Virus record (IMG/VR): IMGVR_UViG_3300001278_000001
Coordinates: 588-64,587 of that record
DNA: 64,000 nt
Strand: one strand, 5' to 3'
DNA from: a virus
Positions 2,374 through 30,615 of this stretch are shown piece by piece. Every line of letters starts with the position of its first letter. The first letter of the stretch is position 1. Both the position numbers and the translations under genes were made by a program. Under the pieces are notes generated by a model. It saw only the letters and a list, made by a program, of their open reading frames with translations, had not been told where the DNA came from and did not search any database.

Positions 2374-2832
2374 TTATATAGCTTTTAAAAACCTATCACA
2401 TCTAATCTTATGTTCTTCATCACTTAGTTCTAGTTCATCCAAAACAGACATAAATATTGAATATTTGGTATCTTTATTGTTGGATAAAATTATTTGTATT
2501 TCAGAATCAATTTTTAAGCATAATGATTCTACTCTTTTTTCTGTTTCAATTAGGTTTTTTATTGTCTTGTTAGCCCAAACAGCAGTAGCGTGATCTCTTA
2601 ACAATAAGTTTGATATAGTTGCTAACGAATACTTGGTGTGTTTGGATAAAAAATACATTATGATCTGACGATTAAAAACCAAACCTCTTTTTTTGTTTCT
2701 AGGTCTTAAATCTTCCAAAGGTAGATCTAAATACTTTCTTATTATAGATAGTATTTGGCTAACAATAGGGTCTTTGTGCATTTGCTTTGTAGCTTCTTGC
2801 AACACGGGTATTTTAAGGGGTTTCTTCTTCAT
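2374..2832 (-). CDS. Stand-alone DnaA C-terminal (domain IV) helix-turn-helix protein
   Basis: RQIIMYFLSKHTKYSLATISNLLLRDHATAVWA matches the DnaA domain IV signature (RQIAMYL..SL..IG..F.RDHTTV). Confidence 0.75.
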   Translation of the reverse strand: MKKKPLKIPVLQEATKQMHKDPIVSQILSIIRKYLDLPLEDLRPRNKKRGLVFNRQIIMYFLSKHTKYSLATISNLLLRDHATAVWANKTIKNLIETEKRVESLCLKIDSEIQIILSNNKDTKYSIFMSVLDELELSDEEHKIRCDRFLKAI

Positions 2833-3277
2833 TTTGAAAATCTATATCAACACCTTCGTTTGGCAAAGGTATTGTTATGTTAAAAAAATTATATGATAAC
2901 TGTCGGCATTTTTCGTGAAATTGTTCTTGATTAGAAGTGTTGTTTTTTGTGGTACTTCTAGTTTTTCGTATTATTTCACCAGTATCTTCATTCACTTCTT
3001 CTACATAATTGCAATTAGCCTTTAGGAACTCATGGACATCTTCTTTAGACCAAATTTCCCCCCAAGCGTCTTCAATTGAGTTAAGGAAAATTCCGACTAT
3101 TACCTTCCAGTAATATTTGTTTTGCTTAACAGATCTTTTGTTTATTCTTTTACTGAAAGTAATGTCGATAGTCATTCCTTCATAGCACTTTACTATTTCA
3201 ATAATTCTATCTTTATTAGAAGCGAATTTTCCGTTTTTTATTAAAACAGGTAGTGTTATTTTGGAAGCGACTTTCAT
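2813..3277 (-). CDS. NinB/Orf-like recombination accessory protein
   Basis: RSVKQNKYYW motif followed by EDVHEFLK and STTK; located in the recombination cluster. Confidence 0.5.
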   Translation of the reverse strand: MKVASKITLPVLIKNGKFASNKDRIIEIVKCYEGMTIDITFSKRINKRSVKQNKYYWKVIVGIFLNSIEDAWGEIWSKEDVHEFLKANCNYVEEVNEDTGEIIRKTRSTTKNNTSNQEQFHEKCRQLSYNFFNITIPLPNEGVDIDFQNEEETP

Positions 3278-3588
3278 TAGTAAAAAATATTTATGAATTT
3301 GAATAAATCTGAAAATCCTGAGGTTAGGTCATATGTGTATATGATGAATTTACCTCCTACATTTTGCCTTTTAGCTATTTTTATAGCTCCTTTTTTCATC
3401 AATCTAATAATATCTCTTTCTCTAAGATTTATTTTAGAATTTAATCTCTCTACACTTAAGTAGTTGCTTCTATTTCTATTGATAAGATCTACACCTCCAA
3501 CTAAAATAGCACCTTCTGATAAGTGAGATAATATTGCTAATTGGTTATCTCCAAATTGTTGTCCTAGAAACATTGTGTTTGTCGCCAT
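3277..3588 (-). CDS. Hypothetical protein
   Basis: ORF track; abuts its neighbours on the operon strand. Confidence 0.6.
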   Translation of the reverse strand: MATNTMFLGQQFGDNQLAILSHLSEGAILVGGVDLINRNRSNYLSVERLNSKINLRERDIIRLMKKGAIKIAKRQNVGGKFIIYTYDLTSGFSDLFKFINIFY

Positions 3589-3593
3589 TATGA

Positions 3594-4904
3594 TTAATTT
3601 TCTATTATTGAATAAGTTATCTCTCCACCTTCGAAATCAGGACGCTCTATCAACAATTGCAAATCATTTTCATTAGCCCAACTTTGAATCTTATCTAATG
3701 AATTTTTATCAAGATAAGAAGCGTCAAAGTGCATAGTTTTAAGTCTTCCTAAGACTAAAGATCCTAGTTTTAGAGCGCAAATATATTTTGAGGAGCTAGA
3801 TATTTGATTATCATTTAATGGAAGACCGTTGTAAGTAATACCTTCATCTGTTAATTTGAATTCCTCAGGCAGATTTGCTTTCTGTATTATTTCGGTTTTT
3901 TCTGTGGTTATTTTTTCTAATTCTTTGTTTAAAGAATCAACCTTAGATCTAGCAGTTTCACCCTCTTTAATCCAATCGTTGTATGATTTAAGGTTTACTT
4001 GATATGCGTCAGACTTAGATTTGTTGTCGTATGCGTCGTCTATTCTTTTGTCAATATCAGAAAAATCATGGTATTCAGGTTCTTTTAGAGTGGATAATTC
4101 CTTAAGTTCCTCAGGAGATTCCATTTTATCGTAAAATCTACTTATTCCCTCTAAATCTATAAATGCGGTTATTTCGTGAGCATCTTCATCTTCAAATTGT
4201 TCTATAATTGACCAATCAGCCATGAATTTATCACGTCTATCTTTTCTTGACTTTTGTATATCATTATGAGAAATAGATTCTTTTTGATTTTTTTCATTAT
4301 CAGAAACCCACTTTTCCTTAAGCTTAGTGTTTTTGTCTACTAAATTTTGCTTCTCTTTCTTAAGAGATTCTATGTTTTCAAATTCTACTTTCTCAGGTTT
4401 TTGCATTTTAATAGCTAAAAGTCTTTTAACTTCTCTATTGGCAATTGTCCTTTCGTCGAACTTCAATTTATATTTCTGATCTAATTCAGATAAATCTATT
4501 CCTAATAATTTTTGAACCTGTTTTAATTGTTCTTTCATGCTACTAGAAATAAACCTATCTATACTGAACTTAGATCCAAAATATTTCTCACCGATAGCAG
4601 ATAAGACTCCTGTAGTCATTTTAATATCATCAGCAGTGGTAAAGGAGAAGTTTTCTGTTTTTTCTGTAAAGCTCCATGAGATTTTAGATCCATCAGTTAG
4701 CTCCATAGAGTTTATTCCTTTAGATTCACCTTCTTTTACGATAATAGATGGTTTTTCTCCTCTAAATCTATCGACAAGTCCTCGTAGAACGCTAGATTTT
4801 CCTTTATTATTCCCTCCTACAATTATTGCGGAAGCTCCATTTAATTCTATATGTTGACTAGATACTGCTTTGTAATTTCTTACTGATATTGATTTTATTT
4901 TCAT
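3594..4904 (-). CDS. SMC/Rad50(SbcC)-like coiled-coil ABC ATPase
   Basis: N-term Walker A GGNNKGKSS, long central coiled coil, C-term signature-like ISSSSKY and Walker B/D-loop HFDASYLD. Confidence 0.72.
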   Translation of the reverse strand: MKIKSISVRNYKAVSSQHIELNGASAIIVGGNNKGKSSVLRGLVDRFRGEKPSIIVKEGESKGINSMELTDGSKISWSFTEKTENFSFTTADDIKMTTGVLSAIGEKYFGSKFSIDRFISSSMKEQLKQVQKLLGIDLSELDQKYKLKFDERTIANREVKRLLAIKMQKPEKVEFENIESLKKEKQNLVDKNTKLKEKWVSDNEKNQKESISHNDIQKSRKDRRDKFMADWSIIEQFEDEDAHEITAFIDLEGISRFYDKMESPEELKELSTLKEPEYHDFSDIDKRIDDAYDNKSKSDAYQVNLKSYNDWIKEGETARSKVDSLNKELEKITTEKTEIIQKANLPEEFKLTDEGITYNGLPLNDNQISSSSKYICALKLGSLVLGRLKTMHFDASYLDKNSLDKIQSWANENDLQLLIERPDFEGGEITYSIIEN

Positions 4905-10005: not shown

Positions 10006-10036
10006 TTTCTAAATATTTATTTGTTTTATTTTTTTG

Positions 10037-10216
10037 TAGTACTGGCAGGAATCGAACCTGCTTGATTGGAGTTTAATCTATTGAATATTTAAGTTTTTAA
10101 TCTGATAACACCTTTAGGCTATTCACGACAGTAATCGAATCTTTTACTAATATTTAACCATTAAACCAACCTATAAGACATATCCACTTTTGCGTACACC
10201 ATTACACCACAGTACT
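10037..10216 (-). ncRNA. tRNA-like RNA with a 130-nt structured insert replacing the anticodon/variable region
   Basis: Acceptor AGTACTG/CAGTACT (7/7 WC), U8, D-arm GTGT-AATGGTGT-ACGC, T-arm GCAGG-TTCGATT-CCTGC, discriminator A. No CCA encoded and no canonical anticodon arm. Confidence 0.8.
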
Positions 10217-10219
10217 TTT

Positions 10220-10918: not shown

Positions 10919-12211
10919 TATAATAGGTATTTTAATTGTAGATATAAATTATTAGCAGTCTCCAAATAAGCTTCCTTTTTTACTGGATTATTAGTAGACT
11001 CTGAAATATTTAAGCATTTGTGAAAAAAATGTATCAGATCTGAAAAATCTTTACACTTATCGAAGTCTGATTGAATCCACAAGTAAATTAAGGGAAACTT
11101 CGGAAGTTCTAATTGAATATTCGCTATTGATCTTGGCATTTTTAGAGTGTTTTATTTTCTGATGTAAAGATAATTAAATATATCATATATGCAACTATAA
11201 GATACATTTATTTTAACTTTTGTTTGTTATTTTATTCTCTAAGTACTGATTTAGAGCGTCTTTCATCTCTGTTTTGAATATATCTGTATATGTTTGAGAG
11301 TGCTTTATTCTTTTCAGTTTGAATTTGAAATTAAAAAATTCTCCTGCGGAAACATTATACATCATTCGGCACTTAGGTTTAATTATTCTGTTTATCCTTA
11401 TGGTGCTTCCTAGATCGGTAACAATGTAGTTTCTAAACTTGTAATTTCGGGTGACAAAATGAACCTTCAGGAAATCTAATATATCGGAAATGTTTTTGTA
11501 TGTATTTGTTGAGTCGTCAAAAAGTATTCGGATAAATTCAGTTTCGATATTGGTGTTCATTGATATTTCATCAATAGTAATATCGTTCTCGATTATTATA
11601 TTCTTGGCTTCCTCGATAACGGTAACAAAATTTTTATACTTTTTCCTTTTTCCGTTCATATTCAATTAGGTTTATGGGTTCTCTAAGTTTAGATTCTAAT
11701 TCTATATATTTATTTACATCTTTAGTTTCGTAAAGAAATTCTTTGCAGAATTCTTTGTAATTTATTGGCTTATAGTTTTTTAAGAAAATAAACTGATCGA
11801 ACTCAAAATTAATAATGAAATTAAAAAGATCGATTATATCGTAAGATTTTACGATAATGTTATTTGATGTGATTAGTTTAAACAAACCTATATTCTTTTT
11901 TGGGTTATTTCTAAGAATTCTTGGTACTGATTTTTCAAATTCAACGATCTTAAGAAGTAAATTTTATTAGTTTCACCTTTTATCATAATAGATACTAGGT
12001 TAAATAATTTTTCTCGGTCAATGGCTTCTTTTTTTGAAGAATTGTAAAAGGTTCTGAGGAAAAATCTACGATCGACAATTTTGCATTTAGCACTATGGTC
12101 TATCGATCTTATTTTAGAATCTAAATTTTTGGTAACGAAATCGTAAATTTCGTTTAGTGATTTCGTTACCAAAATTCTTTCCTTTTTTTTAGATGTTACT
12201 ACCCAATACAT
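10918..12211 (-). CDS. Four hypothetical ORFs (10918-11139, 11213-11665, 11634-11885, 11888-12211)
   Basis: ORF track only. Confidence 0.55.
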
Positions 12212-12887: not shown

Positions 12888-13350
12888 TTAATCTCTGTTT
12901 AGGCAGGATTTACAATCCACCTTGTTAATATTATTTGTCATTTGTAGATTATCGGAAATTTTACCGCATCTACTTTCCGTCCAAACTTTTTTTGCATCTA
13001 CTATAGAGTAGCTTCCATAATGTGTTTTCATAGTTTCGCGGGATTATTGAATTGATTTAGTTACTTCGAGAATCCAAAAAAATAATTGAACAATAATCCA
13101 CGAAAAAGCGAAAATAAATGGCGAAAAAATTATTGGCAGTATTATATACCAGTACTTTATAATATATCTCATAGTTTCGCGGATTAATGAAAGTAACTTT
13201 TGTTTAGTTTAACATGCAGTCGGGCAAATAAAGCGTCCTTTTTATTAAGTGGTGTTTTCCGTTTTGATCTTCTTCGTATAAATCTAAAGAAGCGACAAAA
13301 GGGTTTACATAATTTGTTACAACTGTTTGTTTTGTCTTTTCTTTAGACAT
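12888..13350 (-). CDS. Three small ORFs below the track cutoff: 13204-13350 (48 aa), 13044-13172 (42 aa, hydrophobic) and 12888-13031 (47 aa, Cys-containing)
   Basis: Hand translation: MSKEKTKQ..., MRYIIKYWYIILPIIFSPFIFAFSW..., MKTHYGSY...CKSCLNRD. They fill the apparent gap in frame with operon packing. Confidence 0.6.
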
Positions 13351-13562
13351 TATTTTTTGTATTTAAAAATTGTTATTATACCTATTCCCGATCTTTTTTG
13401 TAAAACATTAAGCGAGTGACACAAGCAAAAAGCTTGTATTTGGAAAAGCTGAGTAGTTTTTATTTCTTTAGAATGAAATTTTACGCAATCTTTTTCAACT
13501 ACTGGACTAACTCCAAAAATTCTAATTAGTTCGATTCTTAAAAATTCTACATTTTTTTGCAT
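13350..13562 (-). CDS. Hypothetical early protein (first gene after pistol 1)
   Basis: ORF track. Confidence 0.6.
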   Translation of the reverse strand: MQKNVEFLRIELIRIFGVSPVVEKDCVKFHSKEIKTTQLFQIQAFCLCHSLNVLQKRSGIGIITIFKYKK

Positions 13563-13584
13563 TTTAATAATTTTTAAATGTTAA

Positions 13585-13650
13585 TAATACCCTGCGGAAA
13601 ACCGCAGACGCTTAGGGCTTAAATTACTTTTTATACTCGCCCTAACGAGT
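13585..13650 (-). ncRNA. Pistol self-cleaving ribozyme, copy 1
   Basis: ACTCG-TTAGGG-CGAGT ATAAAAAG TAAT TTAAG CCCTAA GCGT CTGCGG-TTTT-CCGCAG G GT ATTA: P1, pseudoknot TTAGGG/CCCTAA, P2 TAAT/ATTA, P3, GU cleavage site at 13590/13589. Confidence 0.93.
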
Positions 13651-13651
13651 G

Positions 13652-15447
13652 TTATTTGAATTCAACTATTTGCACATTTACGATTGAAAAAATATCTCTA
13701 TTTTCTCCAAAGTTTACAAAAATATCGCCTTCTTCATCTTGTTTAACTTTGTATTCGCTCCAATCATTGTTTAAAAGATACTCTAAAACTTGGCTTTTGT
13801 CATTGGTTAAAAATACTGGATAATCTTTTCGTCCGTTTCCTATGCTTACTACTGTTAATCCGTTCATTTTCTTTATTTTTTAAGGTTATTATTTATATTT
13901 CATCTATATAGATGTGGTTAATGTGTGAATTTATTTTTCTATTTATCTGAGATTTAGCCTTTTTTCGTGCTTCTGCTTTGCTTTTGGCTTTTACTTGAAT
14001 TTCCATTGAATAAAAATCAATGTCTACAGAATAGGTTTTATTTTCTTTTTTTGCCATAACTAATTATTTTTTTTATACCTACCTATTGCATAAGGCTCAA
14101 AATTAAATTCTCTGTGAACTAGAATGTATCGATAGTTTTCAAAATCATTTAAGTAGGTTGTGACTTTTTCCCAACGATTATTAATTACTTCTCGAAATTC
14201 TAAACCCTTATTTCTAGCATTTAATAAATTTTTAGCTGTCGGTTCGTCATTCATTTTATTAACTAATAAATTAAGTTTTTCGCCTTTTTTTATATTATGT
14301 TTTATTTTATTACTGTATGGCGTTGGTTGTCTGTCCTTGTATTGTTCTGATGTTTCCCAAAATTTCATATCTAATAAGATTTAATAGTTCTATTTAGTAT
14401 TTTTAAAACCTTCTTGGCTCTTTCTACCTCTTTAGGTTCTAAGTGATTGCCATTTAATAATTGTTTTATAATTTCTAAATCTTTCATAATTGTTTTTTTA
14501 TTGTTCGTTTTTCCAGTCTTCGTAATAACCTAAATACACCATACAAAAGTCAATTATTTCTTCTTTTTTTATGCTAAAAAAATTTAATTCTTTTATGTAT
14601 GTTTTTCTTGCTTCCTTCTCTAGTCTTTCAAATCTTTCATATTTTGGCTTAGTTCCGAAAAAACCAGTATTTTTAATGTCTAAAAAAATATCGTCTCTTA
14701 AATTTGCTAATTCTCTAGTGTTTTCAGTAAATAATATCAAATCATTTGAAGCGTGATATTTAGCACCTGTTTCGTAAGTTCCCATATAATTATATATTAT
14801 AAATTTTCTTTTTGAGTTTCCCAAAACTCCAAAAATTCAGGAGTATGACCATTAAGAGCTACGCAGTTATATTGCTCTAAGTCTTCAATGTCTTCAATTA
14901 TACATTTAGTAGATCCGCCATAATAATCCAAAGACGTAAACAAATCGAAGCTTCTTTTTTCTACTCTTCGCCTAGATATTTCTTTCATAGAAACACCTCC
15001 AAAATAATGGTGTTCGCTACTTGTCACACCTCTCATAGAATACCCTACAATATCATCAGAATAAAATTTAATAGGCATAGTTATACGTATATTAAAATCT
15101 TTTGCGGTATATTCAAGTATAACCCTACCACCTGTGTTAATATTACTTTCGGTAAGCAATAAATAAGGACTAAAATGTTTCTTTTTCCCTTTGTAGTCTA
15201 TATCCTTAGTTAGTCTAGTAGCAGGATATTTATTTGTTATTTCTTTTAATATGCTTGATATTTCCGAAATCTTAACTTTTTCTAAGTCGATAAATACAGT
15301 TGTATCTATATTATTAATGTTCACGAACATTTTTAAATTATAAGAAATACTACTTTGTATTTCCTGTTCCATTTCAAAAACTAACATTTCTTTAGCTTGT
15401 TTTTTCTTTAAAATTTCTAACGGTGTTAACTCTTTTGAATCTTGCAT
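13652..15447 (-). CDS. Cluster of early hypothetical ORFs (13652-13867, 13893-14057, 14060-14368, 14371-14487, 14498-14824, 14797-15447)
   Basis: ORF track plus two hand-translated small ORFs (MAKKENKT..., MKDLEIIK...). Confidence 0.6.
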
Positions 15448-15471
15448 AATTACATTTTTAGATTATTAATT

Positions 15472-15537
15472 TCTTACCCCTTACCGAAGTAAGGACGCTC
15501 TAAGCTTAAAAGACTTTTTTAAATCGCTTAGACGATT
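15472..15537 (-). ncRNA. Pistol self-cleaving ribozyme, copy 2
   Basis: AATCG-TCTAAG-CGATT TAAAAAAG TCTT TTAAG CTTAGA GCGT CCTTAC-TTCG-GTAAGG G GT AAGA: pseudoknot TCTAAG/CTTAGA, P2 TCTT/AAGA, cleavage at 15477/15476. Confidence 0.93.
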
Positions 15538-15667
15538 ATACACTATTTGCTTTTTTAATTGCGTAATACAATTTATTAATTTCTCGCTGTACTTCTGCTT
15601 TCTTAATCTTCCAATAATCCAGTTTAGATTCAAGCTCTTTTAATTCGGGGTTTATTTTTTTAGCCAT
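15536..15667 (-). CDS. 43-aa basic helical peptide (below track cutoff)
   Basis: MAKKINPELKELESKLDYWKIKKAEVQREINKLYYAIKKANSV*; its stop codon overlaps P1 of pistol 2. Confidence 0.6.
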   Translation of the reverse strand: MAKKINPELKELESKLDYWKIKKAEVQREINKLYYAIKKANSV

Positions 15668-15668
15668 A

Positions 15669-15932
15669 CTATTTAATTATTACGGTAACAGGAGACAAAC
15701 CTCTAACACGAACAATATATTTACCGCTTGGTAAATCTGACATATCAAATCGGTTATCGTGGCGTATAGTAATCAACTGACCGCTTACCGCATCCAGTAA
15801 ATAAGTTTTCACACTCTCAACCTTATTAATAATTATTTCTTTACCGTTTACAGAAACTAACGGCTTTACCTCTTTAGCGTTAATACTCAATGAAGACACA
15901 ACCAACGCCAATACTAATAATAAATTTTTCAT
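15669..15932 (-). CDS. Signal peptide plus a lone T9SS type-A C-terminal sorting domain (Por secretion tail-like)
   Basis: MKNLLLVLALVVSSLSINA signal; C-term FDMSDLPSGKYIVRV...VTVIIK matches the T9SS CTD pattern iD.s.L..G.Y.v.v.....k.iK. Confidence 0.68.
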   Translation of the reverse strand: MKNLLLVLALVVSSLSINAKEVKPLVSVNGKEIIINKVESVKTYLLDAVSGQLITIRHDNRFDMSDLPSGKYIVRVRGLSPVTVIIK

Positions 15933-15948
15933 AATACTTGTTTTATTT

Positions 15949-16013
15949 TCCTACCGTCCGAATTAACGGACACGCTTAGAGCTTAAAGGACTTTTTAACG
16001 TCGCTCTAACGAC
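15949..16013 (-). ncRNA. Pistol self-cleaving ribozyme, copy 3
   Basis: GTCG-TTAGAG-CGAC GTTAAAAAG TCCT TTAAG CTCTAA GCGT GTCCG-TTAATT-CGGAC G GT AGGA: pseudoknot TTAGAG/CTCTAA, P2 TCCT/AGGA, cleavage at 15954/15953. Confidence 0.92.
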
Positions 16014-16306
16014 TTAAGATTTACTATATAATTAAACACCGATTCGTGTAATTTTTCAATAGTTAAATCCGTACAAAAAACAGCATCAATCTCATCTATA
16101 TAAGATAAAAGATTTTCATTATTAGCGTCTTTAATTCTTACAACTACGGGAATCAACCAATCAAAACTATTGTGATACCGCAACATATCCTCATTAATTA
16201 CAGTTCCCAAAAACAAAACTGATTTTTTATTAAACCCCCAATTTATTTTATGCCCTTCAAATTCGGCAATTACTTTGTTTCTTTCTATTATCTCGTCTAA
16301 ACTCAT
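15995..16306 (-). CDS. Conserved Bacteroidota-phage hypothetical protein
   Basis: NKVIAEFEG...LRYHNSFDWLIPVVVRI motif; its last codons overlap pistol 3. Confidence 0.65.
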   Translation of the reverse strand: MSLDEIIERNKVIAEFEGHKINWGFNKKSVLFLGTVINEDMLRYHNSFDWLIPVVVRIKDANNENLLSYIDEIDAVFCTDLTIEKLHESVFNYIVNLKSLERR

Positions 16307-16532: not shown

Positions 16533-17373
16533 CTTCTTTGTTTTATTATTTCTATACTGCTAATATACAACTATTAGTTACATATACTACTATAAATATG
16601 AATAAAAATAGTAAATAGTATCTATTTATAATCATTCTAAGTAACAGGGGATTAGTATATACTTCACACCACAGAAATACAAAATGCATAGTACAACTAA
16701 ATATACCCCAAAGGAACTACAACGCATATACAACATAGATAGTACAACATAAACACACAACTACTACAAATACATAGTACATCATTACTTATGATTTAGT
16801 TATTATTTTTTTTGTTACAAGGGCTTAGATCAAATAAACACTTAAATATCAATGTTTTAGCGAAAAACTGTCAGCGTATACGGATAAATGTACAGGATAG
16901 TTTTAAATACGCTCAGCATTTGGCGTTCGTTGGGTGAATTTTACCTATATGGAGAGTATATAGAGAAAACAGAGTACACCAACAGATGTATTATTGAAAA
17001 GTAGTATAAAAGTGAATACGCAAAATAAGCCCTTCTAAGAAAGCTAAAAGTTTTTGACATACAAATACATTAGGAAGGGGGTGTGGGTTCAGGAAAACGT
17101 ATTGCCCTAGCTAAATTATACGCATATATCGCCTACTAAGCCTAGACATATAATTGAATACATATAACACAAAAAAGTATCTCTACAGAGAGGATATACA
17201 TATAAATACAAACCATAAATAGCTGTTAAGCTCAGTGTTTTGGATATATATTACTGATTGTTAGCGATTAATAATTTAAAATAGTTCACATTATATGTGT
17301 GATATATTGTCATTATTACACTATTTTCTACATTTAAAGTGATATATTTGTAAAAAGAATAATAAGGGAATAA
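16533..17373. other. 840-bp non-coding divergence region (candidate genome terminus/packaging or origin region)
   Basis: No ORF; transcription switches direction; C/A-rich G-poor tract at ~16660-16785 with repeated ATAGTACA; G-rich GGAAGGGGGTGTGGG at ~17073-17087. Confidence 0.5.
17330..17350 (+). promoter_or_regulatory. TATATTTG promoter with adjacent ACATTTAAAGTGA box
   Basis: TAnnTTTG at 17343-17350; the box is repeated at 18077-18089. Confidence 0.55.
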
Positions 17374-25868: not shown

Positions 25869-26249
25869 TTAAAAAGGCAGGTCGTCCTCCTCATCTTGGT
25901 TTCCACTTGCAGGTTCAAAAGCGTCAGCAGGTGGAACAGGAGGTGGGTTATATGGTTGCTGAGGTTGTCCTGATTGAACAGCTTCAATACGCCAACCTTG
26001 AATAGTATTGAAGTATTTAGTTTCGCCCTGAGGAGAAACCCACTCTCTACCTCTTAGATTAATTCCAATTTTTACTTTTTGACCAACTTTATAACCATCT
26101 AAAATATCACATTTATCCTGTACAAATTGTATGCTAATATGTTGAGGGTATTGCTCTTCTGTAGTTACTACAATATCTCTTTTTCTAAAACCGTTGTCTC
26201 CGACTGTTTCAGTTTGACCTACTAATTTCACTTGTCCTTCTACTTCCAT
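25869..26249 (-). CDS. DUF3127 family SSB-like protein (Bacteroidota type)
   Basis: FRKRDIVVTTEEQYPQHISIQF...INLRGREW...KYFNTIQGWRI and acidic tail EDDLPF. Confidence 0.88.
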   Translation of the reverse strand: MEVEGQVKLVGQTETVGDNGFRKRDIVVTTEEQYPQHISIQFVQDKCDILDGYKVGQKVKIGINLRGREWVSPQGETKYFNTIQGWRIEAVQSGQPQQPYNPPPVPPADAFEPASGNQDEEDDLPF

Positions 26250-26260
26250 TGTTTTTTTAT

Positions 26261-26683
26261 TTAAGCTCCTGTGCTTCCGAAAGAACCTGATCCTCTATCT
26301 GATTTTTGAAGATTGGTTACTGGTATGAAATTTATTTTCGGAACAGGCATTATAATTAATTGTGCGACTCTATCTCCCACATTATATTCATCAAGATCAT
26401 CAACATAATCAAAAACAGCGGAAATCTCACCTCTATACCCACTATCAATAACACCAACGCAGTTCGCTAAAGTCATACCACTTTTATAGCAACTAGAACG
26501 AGGAAAAACATATCCAACAAAGCCTTTAGGTATTTCTAAAGCTAGACCGAAACCATACTTAAATACGTCTTTTTCGGCATCGTAGTTTTTGCTTATAGCT
26601 ACCAAGTCCATTCCCGCATCACCATCTACTTGATATGATGGAATTACAGCATTTTCAGATAACTTCTTAATCTTAACATCCAT
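26261..26683 (-). CDS. dut: Trimeric dUTPase
   Basis: AGMDL, FPRSS, GVIDSGYRGEI, RVAQL and RGSGSFGSTG motifs. Confidence 0.95.
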   Translation of the reverse strand: MDVKIKKLSENAVIPSYQVDGDAGMDLVAISKNYDAEKDVFKYGFGLALEIPKGFVGYVFPRSSCYKSGMTLANCVGVIDSGYRGEISAVFDYVDDLDEYNVGDRVAQLIIMPVPKINFIPVTNLQKSDRGSGSFGSTGA

Positions 26684-26684
26684 A

Positions 26685-27038
26685 TTATTTTTGAGTTTTT
26701 AGTTTGTCTATAATAATAAGTTTTCCTCTAACATTAGGCTTCGAGGAAAGAAAATCCTTAGAAACAATCATTGCTACTCCATTTTGAGACTTGTAAACTA
26801 AAAATACAATTCCATCCATATTACAAACAATGTCATTAGCCTTTAGAGATCCTTTATAATAAGATATTCTAAAAAGATACTGAGACAAGTCCTTTACCTC
26901 AAGTCTAAATATCTTAGCTATCAATAGTTTGAACTTGCTGTATTTGGACTCTCCTGATTCGGTTCTAGTTTTGGTTAGTTCAGAATTTCGAACAATAACA
27001 CTTTTGTTTTTTTGGGTTGGTTTTTTTTGATATGCCAT
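26685..27038 (-). CDS. Hypothetical protein
   Basis: ORF track. Confidence 0.55.
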   Translation of the reverse strand: MAYQKKPTQKNKSVIVRNSELTKTRTESGESKYSKFKLLIAKIFRLEVKDLSQYLFRISYYKGSLKANDIVCNMDGIVFLVYKSQNGVAMIVSKDFLSSKPNVRGKLIIIDKLKTQK

Positions 27039-27232
27039 TATTTATTTTTTTTAATTTTCATCTGTTTCCTAACAGAATAAACAAACCAATTTGATCTGTT
27101 TCTGTTTGTTTCTTCCTTGTTGTCTGCAACGAATTTATCCATGACTTCTAGAAAATCATCAGGAACAGATATACTTATATTGGATGTTTTTGCTTTCATT
27201 TCATACTGCAATTGAGATTCAAATATATACAT
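27038..27232 (-). CDS. Ribbon-helix-helix (CopG/Arc-like) regulator
   Basis: SNISISVPDDFLEVMDKFV...NRSNWFVYSVRKQM. Confidence 0.7.
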   Translation of the reverse strand: MYIFESQLQYEMKAKTSNISISVPDDFLEVMDKFVADNKEETNRNRSNWFVYSVRKQMKIKKNK

Positions 27233-27341
27233 AAATTATAATACAAAATAATATTTTATAATATAATTTACGAAATATTATTATTTTTTTGATTTTTGCT
27301 ATCTTTGTTACTAATCATATTTTTAATTTAATTTTTTCATT

Positions 27342-28281
27342 ATGGAAGAAAAGAAATTGGCTCTTAACGCAGAGCTACAGACGCTATTGGCAAGAATAGC
27401 AGAGCTAAAAGAAAGTGGAGGTCAACGAGACTTGTTTTACGCTTTTATTTATTTTAAACAAGCTAAAGCTATTCAAGCAGAACTTATTTGTATTTCTGAG
27501 TTTGAAGAGTTTGAAGGTGAATTTGGAGGAGAAGGTCTTCAAATTGTTGTAGGTGATGGACGGGTAGATCAGTCTTCGCAAGGATAAAGATTAATGAAAA
27601 ATGGAATTATTAAATATGGCTTTTTGATAGATGGTGGGAAGATCTACGACACAAAGATTCAGGCGTATAAACTTGAGAAGCAATTTTCTGTAAATAATTT
27701 AATTTACACAATGAAACCTAGTTTATACAAAAGACTTTATGAGTTTGAGATATTGCTTCTTTTCTATTCAATAGATAAGGTTTTTGAGTTGCTTAATTTC
27801 AATTCAAAGTTGAAGAAAAACCGTCTATCAGAAGTTATGTTAAAATTAAATAAGCTTCACTACATATCTAATATGTCAACTATATACAATTACCCTCCTA
27901 TATATCTTACACAGAAGAGGTTTACTGTATATAAGGTTTGTCAAAAACTAAAAAAAAGAATAGATTATAATGAAAAATAAAACACCTCTAACTTGTATTA
28001 AAATTGAATTCACTAAGTTTTCAATAAAGTATTTTTTTAACAAATCTATTTTGGACAAAGGCAATTTTTCTTGGTGTTGTCCTCCTGATGTAGTGGATAA
28101 AGATTTGATTCCTAAAAACAATATAATATCTAGGAATTCAAATTTTGTGGTATATACACCTAGTAACGTAACACCTGAGTTCTATCAATCTATTTTTGAT
28201 GAAACAATAAGAAATGTTTCAGAATATGAAATTGAAAGAAATCACATTTACAACATAGGAGATGTTGTTGGGTTTATATAG
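27342..28281 (+). CDS. Three hypothetical ORFs (27342-27587, 27594-27980, 27970-28281) behind a TATCTTTG promoter at 27300-27307
   Basis: ORF track; TAnnTTTG match. Confidence 0.55.
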
Positions 28282-30109
28282 TGTAATCGGAAGATATGTA
28301 ATCTCTAAAAAAATAAACCTTTATCCTGAAACTTGTTAAATTGCTGTATGGAGGTATATGTATTTTTGTAGATGTAGGTGTTGTATCTATTCCTGTGGCA
28401 TTTGTTACTCTAGGTCTAAATCCTAAGTTAGAATAAGATATATTTATAGAATTAGCAATTGCAAATCCTGATCCTAGATTACCTACAGAAACAGAATTAT
28501 TATTTGATGAAACTAATGATATTGATCTTGTAGGGTTATCTCCTCCGCCTGGATTTGTATCTGTCACTTCAAATTCTACAAAAAAAGCAGGTTTAGAATT
28601 ATCTTGAGATTGATTAATTGCATTTATTTCATTTTGATTATTTTGAGCATTTTGTAATGCAATATTAGCTGTGTTTTCAGCTTGATTTGCTAGATTTTCA
28701 TTTGTCTGAATATCTGTTTCGTTCTGAGATATTCTATTATCAACTAATTGCCTATTTAATATATGAGCAGGACTAGATGTATCATTTTCTGCCCAATTAG
28801 ATTGAACTTGCTCAGGTAATGTTATTCTTGATAACTCATTCCCATTAATGGAAAATACTATTTGTCTTCCATCTGTATTGTCCTCATTTAAAGTGTATGA
28901 TATAGGTGTTGTTGTAACATTTCCATCAGAATCAGTTGTAATTAAGTTTCCATTTTCAAAAACCTGAGTTACATTGCTTCCTTGACCAACAACAAATGTA
29001 GCAATATCAAATCCAACATTACCTGCTGTGTCTGTTACAATAACTCTAAATGAATATGTTCCCTCAGTAAGTCCATTAACTCTAGTTGTTTCAGAAGTAG
29101 GATCTACAATAAAGAAATTTCCTCCTGTTAAGCTCTCCCATCTATAGGAAGCTACATCACTACCATCGGTAACAATAGCGGTAAGATCAATAAAATTATC
29201 AGGAAAATCTACTTGATTTTTTGAAAGTTCAATTGTCACATCAGGAATGTCGCTATTAATTGTTTTAATCTCTTCAATTAATCGAATATTATCTATATAA
29301 ACTTTAGATAAAGTATCCTCTTCATTAATTGGGGATATTTTAAATGTAAAAGAATCTATCTCAGAAGCAGGGAAGTTGCTAAAAGTTAAAGGTATTGTTA
29401 TTTCTTGATACGATGTATTTGAAATATCTAATCCAAAAGTAGAATCAACTAATAATATCTCTGTGAAAGATGGAATTCCTGATTTTTCAAAGAAAATAGA
29501 TATTTTATATGGAACAGAATTCGGTTCGTTTCTTAAAAAGAATTTTAACTCTGTTAGATTTTCTGAATTAATAAGTGATCCATTATCAAATTTTATAGTT
29601 GAGTCTATAGCATTTGATATATCACAAAATGAAATATTATTATTCCCATCTTGAGGATCTAATTGACTAGATATGTCTACATTTACAGCAGTAGCATTAC
29701 TAACTGATGGAGTCCACTCTGTATTAGCTAATTCATTATAAACAACAAGTGTGTTTACTGTTGTTTCAATTTGATTAATTGTACTTTCTATAAAAGCTAT
29801 ATCATCTAATGTTTTGCATAATAATTGTTGATGTCTAAATAGAACTTGCACAAAACTTAATGGTAATTCAACAGGTTCTAATGAATCACATTCTTTTTTT
29901 CTAGTTCTTGGGTACGAAAGACACGAATTTTCAAACAAAGACATATCGAAATTTTGACCAAAAATAGCTCCCATTTCAATAGTAATAGTTTCTCCTGTTA
30001 TTGGATCTGTTCCTATTACATAATCCTGAGGACTTAATGGAAATTTTACTTTATATAATTTTTTATTTGCTATCTGACCCATGATGTAATTTTTGTGAAA
30101 ATTAAGCAT
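28274..30109 (-). CDS. Tail/virion appendage protein with carbohydrate-binding-like, PKD-like and coiled-coil segments
   Basis: YRWESLTGG...TRVNGLTEGTYSFRVIVTD (PKD-like); beta-sandwich ending VYIDNIRL; QNAQNNQNE coiled coil. Confidence 0.6.
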   Translation of the reverse strand: MLNFHKNYIMGQIANKKLYKVKFPLSPQDYVIGTDPITGETITIEMGAIFGQNFDMSLFENSCLSYPRTRKKECDSLEPVELPLSFVQVLFRHQQLLCKTLDDIAFIESTINQIETTVNTLVVYNELANTEWTPSVSNATAVNVDISSQLDPQDGNNNISFCDISNAIDSTIKFDNGSLINSENLTELKFFLRNEPNSVPYKISIFFEKSGIPSFTEILLVDSTFGLDISNTSYQEITIPLTFSNFPASEIDSFTFKISPINEEDTLSKVYIDNIRLIEEIKTINSDIPDVTIELSKNQVDFPDNFIDLTAIVTDGSDVASYRWESLTGGNFFIVDPTSETTRVNGLTEGTYSFRVIVTDTAGNVGFDIATFVVGQGSNVTQVFENGNLITTDSDGNVTTTPISYTLNEDNTDGRQIVFSINGNELSRITLPEQVQSNWAENDTSSPAHILNRQLVDNRISQNETDIQTNENLANQAENTANIALQNAQNNQNEINAINQSQDNSKPAFFVEFEVTDTNPGGGDNPTRSISLVSSNNNSVSVGNLGSGFAIANSINISYSNLGFRPRVTNATGIDTTPTSTKIHIPPYSNLTSFRIKVYFFRDYISSDYTI

Positions 30110-30150
30110 TATATCACATATAAATAAGGCTTAATTGTAATTTGACAATG

Positions 30151-30615
30151 CTATTTTTTTCTTATTTTTTGTATTTTCTCTAAACTTCTACCTCCAAAAT
30201 AAGCACCGTACACTAGTAATAGTAAGGAGGACAATAAGCTGATCCAATCCTTTTTTACGTCGAATCCATCAACCGAACTATCTACAGTTATATAAGTTGC
30301 CATAGCGACTGTTAGAAATATGATTATTAAAGGTCTTACATTTTTACTTAACCAAGAGTCAGAAGTCATGTCAGATTCCCATCTTTTAGTTGTCTCTTGA
30401 GCGTCTAACACATCAAATTCAAGCAACTTTAAAGCCACTTCTTTATCTTGTTGACTTATGGTGTCGGAATCACCAATAACCTTTCCTAGCTTCTTCAAAG
30501 CCCCAACGCCTGAAATACTACCTGCTATATCTAAAATATCAGGAGCAACACCTTTTAATTTTCTTAAAAAGTCTCCAACACGAGTAGTTCCGTTTTTATC
30601 TTTATAATTTCCCAT
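30151..30615 (-). CDS. Holin (3TM, GTA-holin-like)
   Basis: DMTSDSWLSKNVRPLIIIF...AYFGGRSLEK. Confidence 0.78.
   Translation of the reverse strand: MGNYKDKNGTTRVGDFLRKLKGVAPDILDIAGSISGVGALKKLGKVIGDSDTISQQDKEVALKLLEFDVLDAQETTKRWESDMTSDSWLSKNVRPLIIIFLTVAMATYITVDSSVDGFDVKKDWISLLSSLLLLVYGAYFGGRSLEKIQKIRKK

Follow-up and report, generated by a model that had tools for sequence, protein, structure and literature searches.

Three pistol ribozymes between the genes of a phage operon, and why linear sub-messages are a likelier product than circles

The DNA analyzed here, a stretch of 64,000 nucleotides from a phage genome that we call the window, carries three pistol ribozymes between the genes of one leftward block. 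We consider it fairly probable that they are intercistronic processing ribozymes of a single leftward unit, and that what they yield are linear, end-protected sub-mRNAs. Compared with circles, linear sub-messages are the likelier and the more ordinary outcome. The ribozymes, their cut positions, the layout around them and the structures of the ends are observed features of the window. Pistol ribozymes are already known, and the same idea of processing and end protection has been put forward for bacterial and phage ribozymes (PMC6765202); the locus adds a further example.

Using Rfam cmscan, where the gathering score for RF02679 is 34.5 bits, we find three full-length pistols in the window, every one scoring above that threshold:

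15949..16014, minus strand: pistol ribozyme 3 (RF02679, 57.7 bits, E-value 6.7e-8, model positions 1-68)
15472..15537, minus strand: pistol ribozyme 2 (RF02679, 63.2 bits, E-value 3.8e-9, model positions 1-68)
13585..13650, minus strand: pistol ribozyme 1 (RF02679, 67.0 bits, E-value 5e-10, model positions 1-68)

The Rfam search reports no other ribozyme family at E-values ≤1, and there is no fourth pistol anywhere in the 70,806-bp complete phage record.

All three copies have the stems P1, P2 and P3, together with a 6-bp pseudoknot with the P1 loop. Over the three copies, 97.1% of the 69 cells are paired, against 33-50% in slid controls, and 13 of the 23 pairs show compensatory changes, a level reached by 0/500 shuffles. 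In the pseudoknot, pairing is 100%, with 4 of the 6 pairs compensatory. These helices have been kept by compensatory changes in three diverged copies, and therefore there is selection on ribozyme function. Residues A32, G33, G40, C41, G42, G61 and U62 are invariant (3/3 copies); the roles of the catalytic nucleotides (purine 32, G33-C41, G40 and G42) have been described (PMC6154101). Judged by their sequences, the three elements are genuine pistol ribozymes.

The cleavage site of a pistol is the G-U junction between P3 and P2 (PMC6154101), and the cmscan alignments give predicted cuts between G15954 and U15953, between G15477 and U15476, and between G13590 and U13589. Cleavage in this family yields a 2′,3′-cyclic phosphate and a 5′-OH, and under physiological conditions its rate is about 10 per min (Harris 2015, PMC4604425). 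Because these are real pistols with complete catalytic residues, and because of the family chemistry, cleaved ends are expected at those positions. Pistols 1-3 are thus predicted to self-cleave giving 5′-OH and 2′,3′-cyclic phosphate, the termini that an earlier note on this DNA had proposed.

With the cuts placed by the alignments, the two ribozyme-bounded pieces are exactly 477 nt and 1887 nt long. The earlier note had given the same lengths, which the predicted cuts reproduce exactly, and it had also counted the ORFs correctly, two (87 and 43 aa) in the shorter piece and six in the longer one. The pieces, their contents and the start of the downstream RNA are as follows:

15477..15953, minus strand: 477-nt piece, with a 21-nt AU-rich leader, two ORFs, and pistol 2 minus its last 5 nt
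15669-15932, minus strand: 87-aa ORF, signal-peptide/T9SS-CTD-like, inside the 477-nt piece
15536-15667, minus strand: 43-aa ORF, inside the 477-nt piece
13590..15476, minus strand: 1887-nt piece, with a 29-nt leader, six ORFs, and pistol 1 minus its last 5 nt
15455-15450, minus strand: AUG-UAA start-stop, within the 29-nt leader of the 1887-nt piece
15447-14797, minus strand: 216-aa ORF, 1887-nt piece
14824/14785-14498, minus strand: 108/95-aa ORF, 1887-nt piece
14487-14371, minus strand: 38-aa ORF, 1887-nt piece
14368-14060, minus strand: 102-aa ORF, 1887-nt piece
14057-13893, minus strand: 54-aa ORF, 1887-nt piece
13867-13652, minus strand: 71-aa ORF, 1887-nt piece
13563..13589, minus strand: 27-nt leader of the downstream RNA, with a predicted 5′-OH, 93% A+U in the first 30 nt and no stable structure

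The first ORF of the downstream RNA lies at 13350-13562 and is followed by the remaining leftward gene block. None of the eight ORFs in the two pieces has a confident family match. What the earlier note had called a T9SS-CTD gene, the 87-aa ORF, retains a sub-threshold resemblance only, with 15.2 bits against Pfam Por_Secre_tail (cut-off 27) and 19.2 bits against TIGR04183 (cut-off 23). Queries with the 216-aa, 96-aa and 103-aa ORFs found no close operon relatives in viral contigs, and a tblastn search of cultured phages with the 611-aa protein found no match. The segment mRNAs may be early ones, a label that comes from their position alone.

The same-strand ORFs lie close together all the way from 17060 to 765, with gaps of ≤31 nt, and between 16690 and 11888 the only gaps >45 nt are those occupied by pistols. 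Besides the ribozyme hairpins themselves, the region has no terminator-like sites, and promoter scans are not above chance, with 24 sigma-70-like hits vs. 29 expected and 7 Bacteroidota-type hits vs. 6.2 expected. Gene packing alone suggests that the whole leftward block is co-transcribed.

Stops and starts lie close to the ribozymes on either side. P1 of pistol 3 overlaps the TAA stop of the ORF at 15995-16306 (stop at +20 from the ribozyme start), pistol 2 starts within the TAA stop of the ORF at 15536-15667 (stop at +2), and pistol 1 starts 1 nt past the stop of the ORF at 13652-13867 (stop at −1). From cut to AUG, the leaders of pistols 3, 2 and 1 measure 21, 29 and 27 nt. In viral contigs, the cut falls 20-41 nt ahead of the next ATG-ORF for 34 of 55 pistols, and for 21 of 26 array pistols the upstream stop is −10 to +25 nt from the ribozyme start. 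The three pistols in the window fit this general pattern of stop, ribozyme, leader and start. The 3′ strand of P2 occupies −28 to −17 relative to the AUG; the leaders are 83-93% A+U and fold with only −2.2 to −2.7 kcal/mol over 60 nt. At the extreme 3′ end of each 5′ product stands a P3 hairpin of 6-7 bp (−7.9 to −11.1 kcal/mol), such that the 3′ terminus consists of that hairpin and one G>p.

A cultured relative has a similar arrangement. The ORF at 14498-14824 has 68% DNA identity to gp045 of Cellulophaga phage phi46:3, a phage cultured on C. baltica, whose genome contains a single pistol:

KC821622, 19461-19528, minus strand: phi46:3 pistol, single copy

As in the window, the phi46:3 pistol lies in a region of small ORFs and overlaps an upstream stop, and by our own reading of the flanks its predicted cut is ~23 nt before gp045. 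In phi46:3 the pistol directly precedes gp045, whereas in the window the 216-aa ORF lies in between. Having one pistol, phi46:3 therefore has no ribozyme-bounded internal piece, unlike the window phage. The pistol is absent from the annotated features of that stretch in the phi46:3 record.

Under the explanation we favor, each pistol would fold and cut at its own G-U junction as the RNA polymerase passes, and the polycistronic RNA would become a 5′ part, the 477-nt piece, the 1887-nt piece and a long downstream remainder. Each upstream product would end in a compact body (P1, pseudoknot and P3 hairpin) and then a single G with a 2′,3′-cyclic phosphate, an end that would offer neither a single-stranded toe-hold for 3′ exonucleases nor a 3′-OH for poly(A) polymerase. 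Each downstream product would begin with a 5′-OH and an unstructured A+U leader, 21-29 nt ahead of the start codon. Cleavage would free the ribosome-loading region from P2, and the 5′-OH would present no 5′-monophosphate for RNase E/G-type decay. The net effect would be to uncouple the stability and translation of neighboring cassettes. We infer that cleavage occurs in vivo and that it affects half-life or translation.

A 5′-OH protects an RNA in hosts with RNase E and destabilizes it in hosts with RNase J, as established for E. coli and B. subtilis. The probable host appears to be a marine Bacteroidota of the Flavobacteriaceae type; with the T9SS-like ORF as query, bacterial genomes gave no match. 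In a Bacteroidia sample centered on a Mucilaginibacter genome, RNase E/G is present in 61/61 genomes, RNase J in 0/61, and RtcB in 74/301, figures that hold at the level of the class. The 5′-OH product of the glmS ribozyme is reportedly destroyed by RNase J1 in B. subtilis. Because RNase J is found in 0/61 of the genomes searched from the probable host class, the sign of the 5′-OH effect may here be opposite to that of glmS. Firmicutes, the group with the most pistols, do have RNase J, and therefore one "protection" logic cannot cover the whole family.

Alternatively, the pistols could be translation devices, such that cleavage releases the ribosome-loading region from P2 and the ribozyme and leaves a free 5′ end near the start codon. 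The host would be one whose initiation does not depend on Shine-Dalgarno pairing, and ribosomes that terminate on the overlapped upstream stop would modulate ribozyme folding. We regard this as unlikely, if well short of negligible. It would explain the narrow spacing from cut to AUG, both here and in the 34 of 55 viral pistols, as well as the upstream stops that overlap or adjoin P1, and the 3′ strand of P2 falls roughly in the stretch of mRNA that a ribosome should touch on initiation. In RNA viruses, a connection with translation initiation has been drawn for ribozymes located in 5′ UTRs (PMC13725137). Conservation in two arrays (G019 and G016) is higher over the opening 24 nt of the 3′ product (0.76) than over the P1/P3 stems (0.56-0.66), but the leaders in the window are less alike (mutual identity 0.57) than the stems (0.63-0.67). 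Moreover, this reading overlaps with that of linear, end-protected sub-messages and does not exclude it. A very unlikely account, in our judgment, is that of a cassette boundary or selfish module, in which a "pistol plus leader" spreads by duplication and recombination with small accessory cassettes; cleavage would then be tolerated or mildly useful, and the pieces would reflect a history of gene shuffling and not a strategy for the fate of the RNA. Many phage contigs have arrays of 2-7 same-strand pistols that bound pieces of 305-2356 nt, and the copies may be near-identical (P1 100% and P3 92% in array G034). The missing family matches of all eight ORFs, and the homologue of ORF 14498-14824 that adjoins a pistol in phi46:3, point the same way. 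But that every helix is preserved by compensatory changes in three diverged copies indicates selection and not hitch-hiking, and the spacing to stops and starts is too regular for neutral insertions.

Circular phage mRNAs, which the earlier note had raised, we hold to be improbable. Host RtcB or the reverse ribozyme reaction would join the ends of a piece into a circle that is exonuclease-proof and uses internal initiation; the 477-nt circle would alternate between open and closed, and the 1887-nt circle, having a broken chimeric P2, would persist. Each piece has a pistol on either side, in the same orientation, and the ligatable termini expected from the family chemistry, 5′-OH and 2′,3′-cyclic phosphate, are exactly the substrate of RtcB. 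Native E. coli RtcB circularizes engineered ribozyme-flanked mRNAs, which are translated (PMC12628768), and a published study addresses the ligation activity of pistols. "Circular" pistol RNAs have been described in 13 clusters (9 from marine metatranscriptomes, 1 a segment of a dsDNA phage; bioRxiv 10.1101/2022.07.19.500677), but the basis for calling them circular was terminal repeats of contigs, which tandem near-identical pistol cassettes would mimic; the supplements of this cccRNA preprint do not mention the pistol. The phage genome itself has no match at E-values ≤1 to RtcB, Rnl1, Rnl2 or 2H ligases (PF01139, PF09414, PF09511, PF13563). RtcB is patchy not only in Bacteroidia but also among pistol-carrying bacterial genomes, where it occurs in 13 of 21, many of them incomplete MAGs; there is therefore no obligate pistol-RtcB coupling, although this count settles little in either direction. 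Engineered systems depend on "sticky ends" to join the termini. Here, when the 40 nt at the 5′ end of a piece are paired with the 100 nt at its 3′ end, the duplex energies (−4.5 and −5.6 kcal/mol) are weaker than in shuffled controls (mean ~−9) and thus not above chance; the one pairing left between the termini is the chimeric P2, with 4 bp in the 477-nt piece and 2/4 pairs in the 1887-nt piece. Our P2 pairing matrix agrees with the arithmetic of the earlier note: UCUU of pistol 2 pairs with the leftover AGGA of pistol 3 at 4/4 positions, with one G-U wobble, and UAAU of pistol 1 with the leftover AAGA of pistol 2 at 2/4. The rebuilt pistol it saw in the 477-nt circle does pair, yet this is a generic state of arrays and no more than paralogy gives: we compared chimeric and native P2 in 17 adjacent pieces taken from seven phage arrays, and in 13 the chimera equals or betters the native stem. 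Re-cleavage in seconds to minutes would therefore be the fate of most circles, and the 477-nt circle, with its rebuilt pistol, would cut at ~10 per min. The partner with which P2 covaries is the 3′ strand of the same ribozyme and not that of the neighboring one. No circular frame is open, with at least 12 stops in each, and no ORF crosses the junction beyond a stretch of ≤15 aa, which rejects rolling-circle translation even though both lengths are divisible by 3; across arrays, only 5/17 piece lengths are. In an exact-pattern scan of metagenome contigs, the junctions (477/2364-nt and 1887-nt) and the native sequence were alike absent, so that the scan weighs on neither side. The circular-mRNA idea finds no positive support in the sequence, and it is very doubtful that RtcB or the reverse reaction ligates a substantial part of these RNAs, above all of the six-gene piece of 1887 nt, into translatable circles. 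The earlier note had proposed "differential stabilisation or circularisation"; end protection is mechanistically reasonable, given the P3 hairpin with its G>p and the RNase complement of the class, while circularization, with no phage ligase, patchy RtcB and no end pairing, is unsupported.

The locus is a clean case for the role of pistols, with three diverged and selected copies, two defined cassettes and a complete phage genome, and since there is also a cultured relative with the same layout, the questions of half-life, translation and circles are directly testable. Natural circular mRNAs, if true, would represent a way of expressing phage genes that is new; pistol arrays would be the natural counterpart of engineered ribozyme/RtcB circular-RNA systems, and could account for the pistol-bearing "circular RNAs" of marine metatranscriptomes. 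Without circles, there is still the regular stop-ribozyme-leader-start architecture recorded at this locus, for which every functional model has to account.

Among known systems, the closest is the pistol family itself (RF02679; Weinberg et al. 2015, Harris et al. 2015), with which the window pistols share the fold, the catalytic residues and the G-U junction, as well as a phage setting and a clustering with further ribozymes, both described for the family. The family is most frequent in Firmicutes, whereas the host lineage of the window phage appears to be marine Bacteroidota, and three diverged copies within one operon differ from the typical setting. With glmS, the locus shares the proposal that a ribozyme-made 5′-OH governs the fate of the downstream mRNA. 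In Tornado-type E. coli systems two flanking ribozymes leave 5′-OH and 2′,3′-cyclic phosphate ends on a coding RNA that contains an RBS, and similar ends are predicted here; those systems, however, use "sticky ends" (PMC12628768), whereas the complementarity between the ends of the phage pieces is not above chance. Finally, viroid-like, retrozyme and "asymmetric cccRNA" circles are, like the phage pieces, unit-length RNAs delimited by ribozymes, but such circles are replicons or transcripts of retroelements and in many cases strongly self-complementary, whereas the phage pieces are AU-rich coding RNA of a DNA phage.

The window holds exactly three pistol ribozymes (Rfam RF02679, gathering score 34.5 bits), all full-length and all on the minus strand:

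16014-15949, minus strand: pistol 3, full-length Rfam match, 57.7 bits
15537-15472, minus strand: pistol 2, full-length Rfam match, 63.2 bits
13650-13585, minus strand: pistol 1, full-length Rfam match, 67.0 bits

A permissive scan of the window reports no other ribozyme family, and the remainder of the 70,806-bp genome has no further pistols. In an ungapped alignment the three copies have a per-column identity of 79%; 97.1% of the cells are paired on the pistol structure, pseudoknot included, and 13 of the 23 pairs show compensatory changes. None of 500 shuffles matches the observed pairing and covariation, and slid controls pair at only 33-50%. Residues A32, G33-C41, G40 and G42, which have been given catalytic roles by structural work (PMC6154101), are invariant in the three copies, and so is the G-U junction between P3 and P2. 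That invariant junction leads us to predict cuts between G15954 and U15953, G15477 and U15476, and G13590 and U13589. Recomputed from these predicted cuts, the internal pieces are 477 nt with two ORFs and 1887 nt with six, in agreement with the earlier note. In a consensus scan, pistol 1's P3 hairpin and the GUAUUAUUAA after it (13591-13608, minus strand) were flagged as terminator-like; the hairpin might also serve as a weak terminator, or the flag might be a chance match in AU-rich DNA.

The pistols sit in a minus-strand block of closely packed small ORFs that runs from ~17060 down to 765, and in their part of the operon there is no sizeable intercistronic gap apart from those that they fill. 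At all three, the upstream stop overlaps or adjoins P1, and the distances from cut to next AUG are 21, 29 and 27 nt (pistols 3, 2 and 1). Elsewhere in this leftward block, gaps at 16690-16940 (~250 nt) and 11660-11887 (~228 nt), both on the minus strand, hold no ATG-ORF of at least 35 aa and no Rfam match, and could be sites of promoters or undescribed RNAs; a further gap lies at 10006-10219. The leader released by pistol 2 has a minimal AUG-UAA start-stop (15455-15450, minus strand), which ends 2 nt upstream of the start codon of a 216-aa ORF (AUG, 15447).

For comparison, pistols in viral contigs were gathered by a degenerate pattern (46 records), then searched with the Rfam model; in them, arrays of 2-7 pistols on one strand are frequent. 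The layout of stop, ribozyme, leader and start is general among pistols: 34 of 55, in a set without de-replication, have 20-41 nt between the cut and the ATG-ORF that follows, and for array pistols the upstream stop lies -10 to +25 nt from the ribozyme start in 21 of 26. Two of these contigs carry a 7-copy array (G019 25961-30279, L050) and a 4-copy array (G016 2399-4650, L051). There, conservation between copies is 0.76 for the first 24 nt of the 3′ products, a stretch made up of the P2 3′ strand and the leader as far as the RBS, versus 0.56-0.66 for the P1/P3 stems, which is why the leader in these arrays looks like a constrained module itself.

The source, an IMG/VR virus record (70,806 bp, direct terminal repeats) of which the window covers bases 588-64587, is rated 100% complete, and the window has a G+C of 30%. 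Among cultured phages, only Cellulophaga phage phi46:3 (Pachyviridae; host Cellulophaga baltica) is related to it at the nucleotide level, with 68% identity between gp045 and ORF 14498-14824. This relative, the sub-threshold T9SS sorting domain matches of the 87-aa ORF, and leaders that when read by eye are AU-rich with no Shine-Dalgarno motif seen, together indicate that the host is probably a member of the Bacteroidota, likely of the Flavobacteriaceae.

The 5′ products are predicted to terminate with the P3 hairpin (6-7 bp, -7.9 to -11.1 kcal/mol) and a single G>p, and the 3′ products to start with an unstructured leader of 83-93% A+U. Bacterial 3′ exonucleases require a single-stranded 3′ tail, and poly(A) polymerase requires a 3′-OH. 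A 5′-monophosphate stimulates E. coli RNase E, and the 5′-OH product of the glmS ribozyme is degraded by RNase J1 in B. subtilis. Because RNase E/G is present in 61/61 genomes of a Bacteroidia sample (G052-G127) and RNase J above cut-off in 0/61, a 5′-OH is probably not a disadvantage in the likely host class.

Most likely, and we hold this with some confidence, the pistols are intercistronic processing ribozymes, which would split one operon transcript into linear sub-mRNAs whose ends are protected and whose leaders are short and free. Processing of polycistronic transcripts by ribozymes of bacteria and phages, giving RNAs that differ in stability or translatability, has already been proposed (PMC6765202). 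A chiefly translational role, which overlaps with this processing model, we consider unlikely. Circular phage mRNAs made from the pistol-bounded pieces are more doubtful, and a cassette-boundary or selfish module is the least probable reading. The window pistols belong to a known kind of ribozyme; the circles are the speculative, and interesting, part.

A ligation activity of pistols is reportedly the subject of a published study. Native E. coli RtcB makes engineered circles, and the route is thus chemically feasible (PMC12628768). The phage, however, has no RtcB, Rnl2-type, T4 Rnl1-type or 2H ligase at E<=1, in searches whose positive controls, well-known genomes, all matched. Of 21 bacterial genomes in which a pistol was matched by pattern, 13 have RtcB, as do about a quarter of sampled class Bacteroidia genomes (74/301 counting the unpublished genome G155, 73/300 minus it, a difference that affects none of the claims). 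Engineered ribozyme/RtcB systems depend on "sticky ends" for bringing their termini into proximity (PMC12628768), whereas in each phage piece the complementarity between the 5′-terminal 40 nt and the 3′-terminal 100 nt falls below that of shuffled controls. Both 477 and 1887 are multiples of three, a property found at chance level across arrays, and neither piece has an open circular frame or a junction-crossing ORF. Pattern scans of metagenome contigs matched neither the native nor the predicted junction sequence. Pistols have been reported in thirteen clusters of "asymmetric cccRNAs", of which nine are marine and one is a dsDNA phage segment, with circularity called from contig terminal repeats (bioRxiv 10.1101/2022.07.19.500677). 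Nearly identical pistol cassettes in tandem, like the ones of viral contig G034, would mimic that signal.

The earlier note also claimed that circularizing the 477-nt piece would rebuild a pistol through a chimeric P2, formed by strands of two neighboring ribozymes. The pairing arithmetic stands: UCUU with AGGA gives four pairs, one a wobble, and UAAU with AAGA in the 1887-nt circle gives 2/4. Across seven arrays, the window's included, the chimeric P2 is at least as good as the native one in 13 of 17 adjacent pieces, versus 34% for chimeras between different arrays, because the P2 3′ strand, and often the downstream leader too, is common to the copies of one array. The "rebuilt pistol" is a default consequence of paralogy. 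Moreover, among the three window copies the covariation of P2, seen at 2/4 pairs, is with its own 3′ strand and not with the neighboring ribozyme's, which argues against selection for cross-piece pairing. Since pistols cleave at roughly 10 per min (PMC4604425), a rebuilt one would re-cleave, and P2 compatibility therefore disfavors a stable circle.

Pattern-matched pistols in bacteria (L063-L084) are mostly in genomes of Lachnospiraceae and other Clostridia, and also in two Mucilaginibacter MAGs and Bacillus and Lysinibacillus genomes; a further one is on a contig of a Promethearchaeota MAG, and this contig may be phage DNA or have been binned wrongly. Phage phi46:3 has a single pistol (L062):

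KC821622 19461-19528, minus strand: phi46:3 pistol, 46.5 bits, between gp046 and gp045

No such element is listed among the features annotated there in KC821622. This pistol overlaps the stop of gp046 and, by our own reading of the flanks, is cut ~23 nt before the start of gp045, the homologue of window ORF 14498-14824. This is the same stop/start layout as in the window's three pistols, and makes phi46:3 a tractable experimental system.
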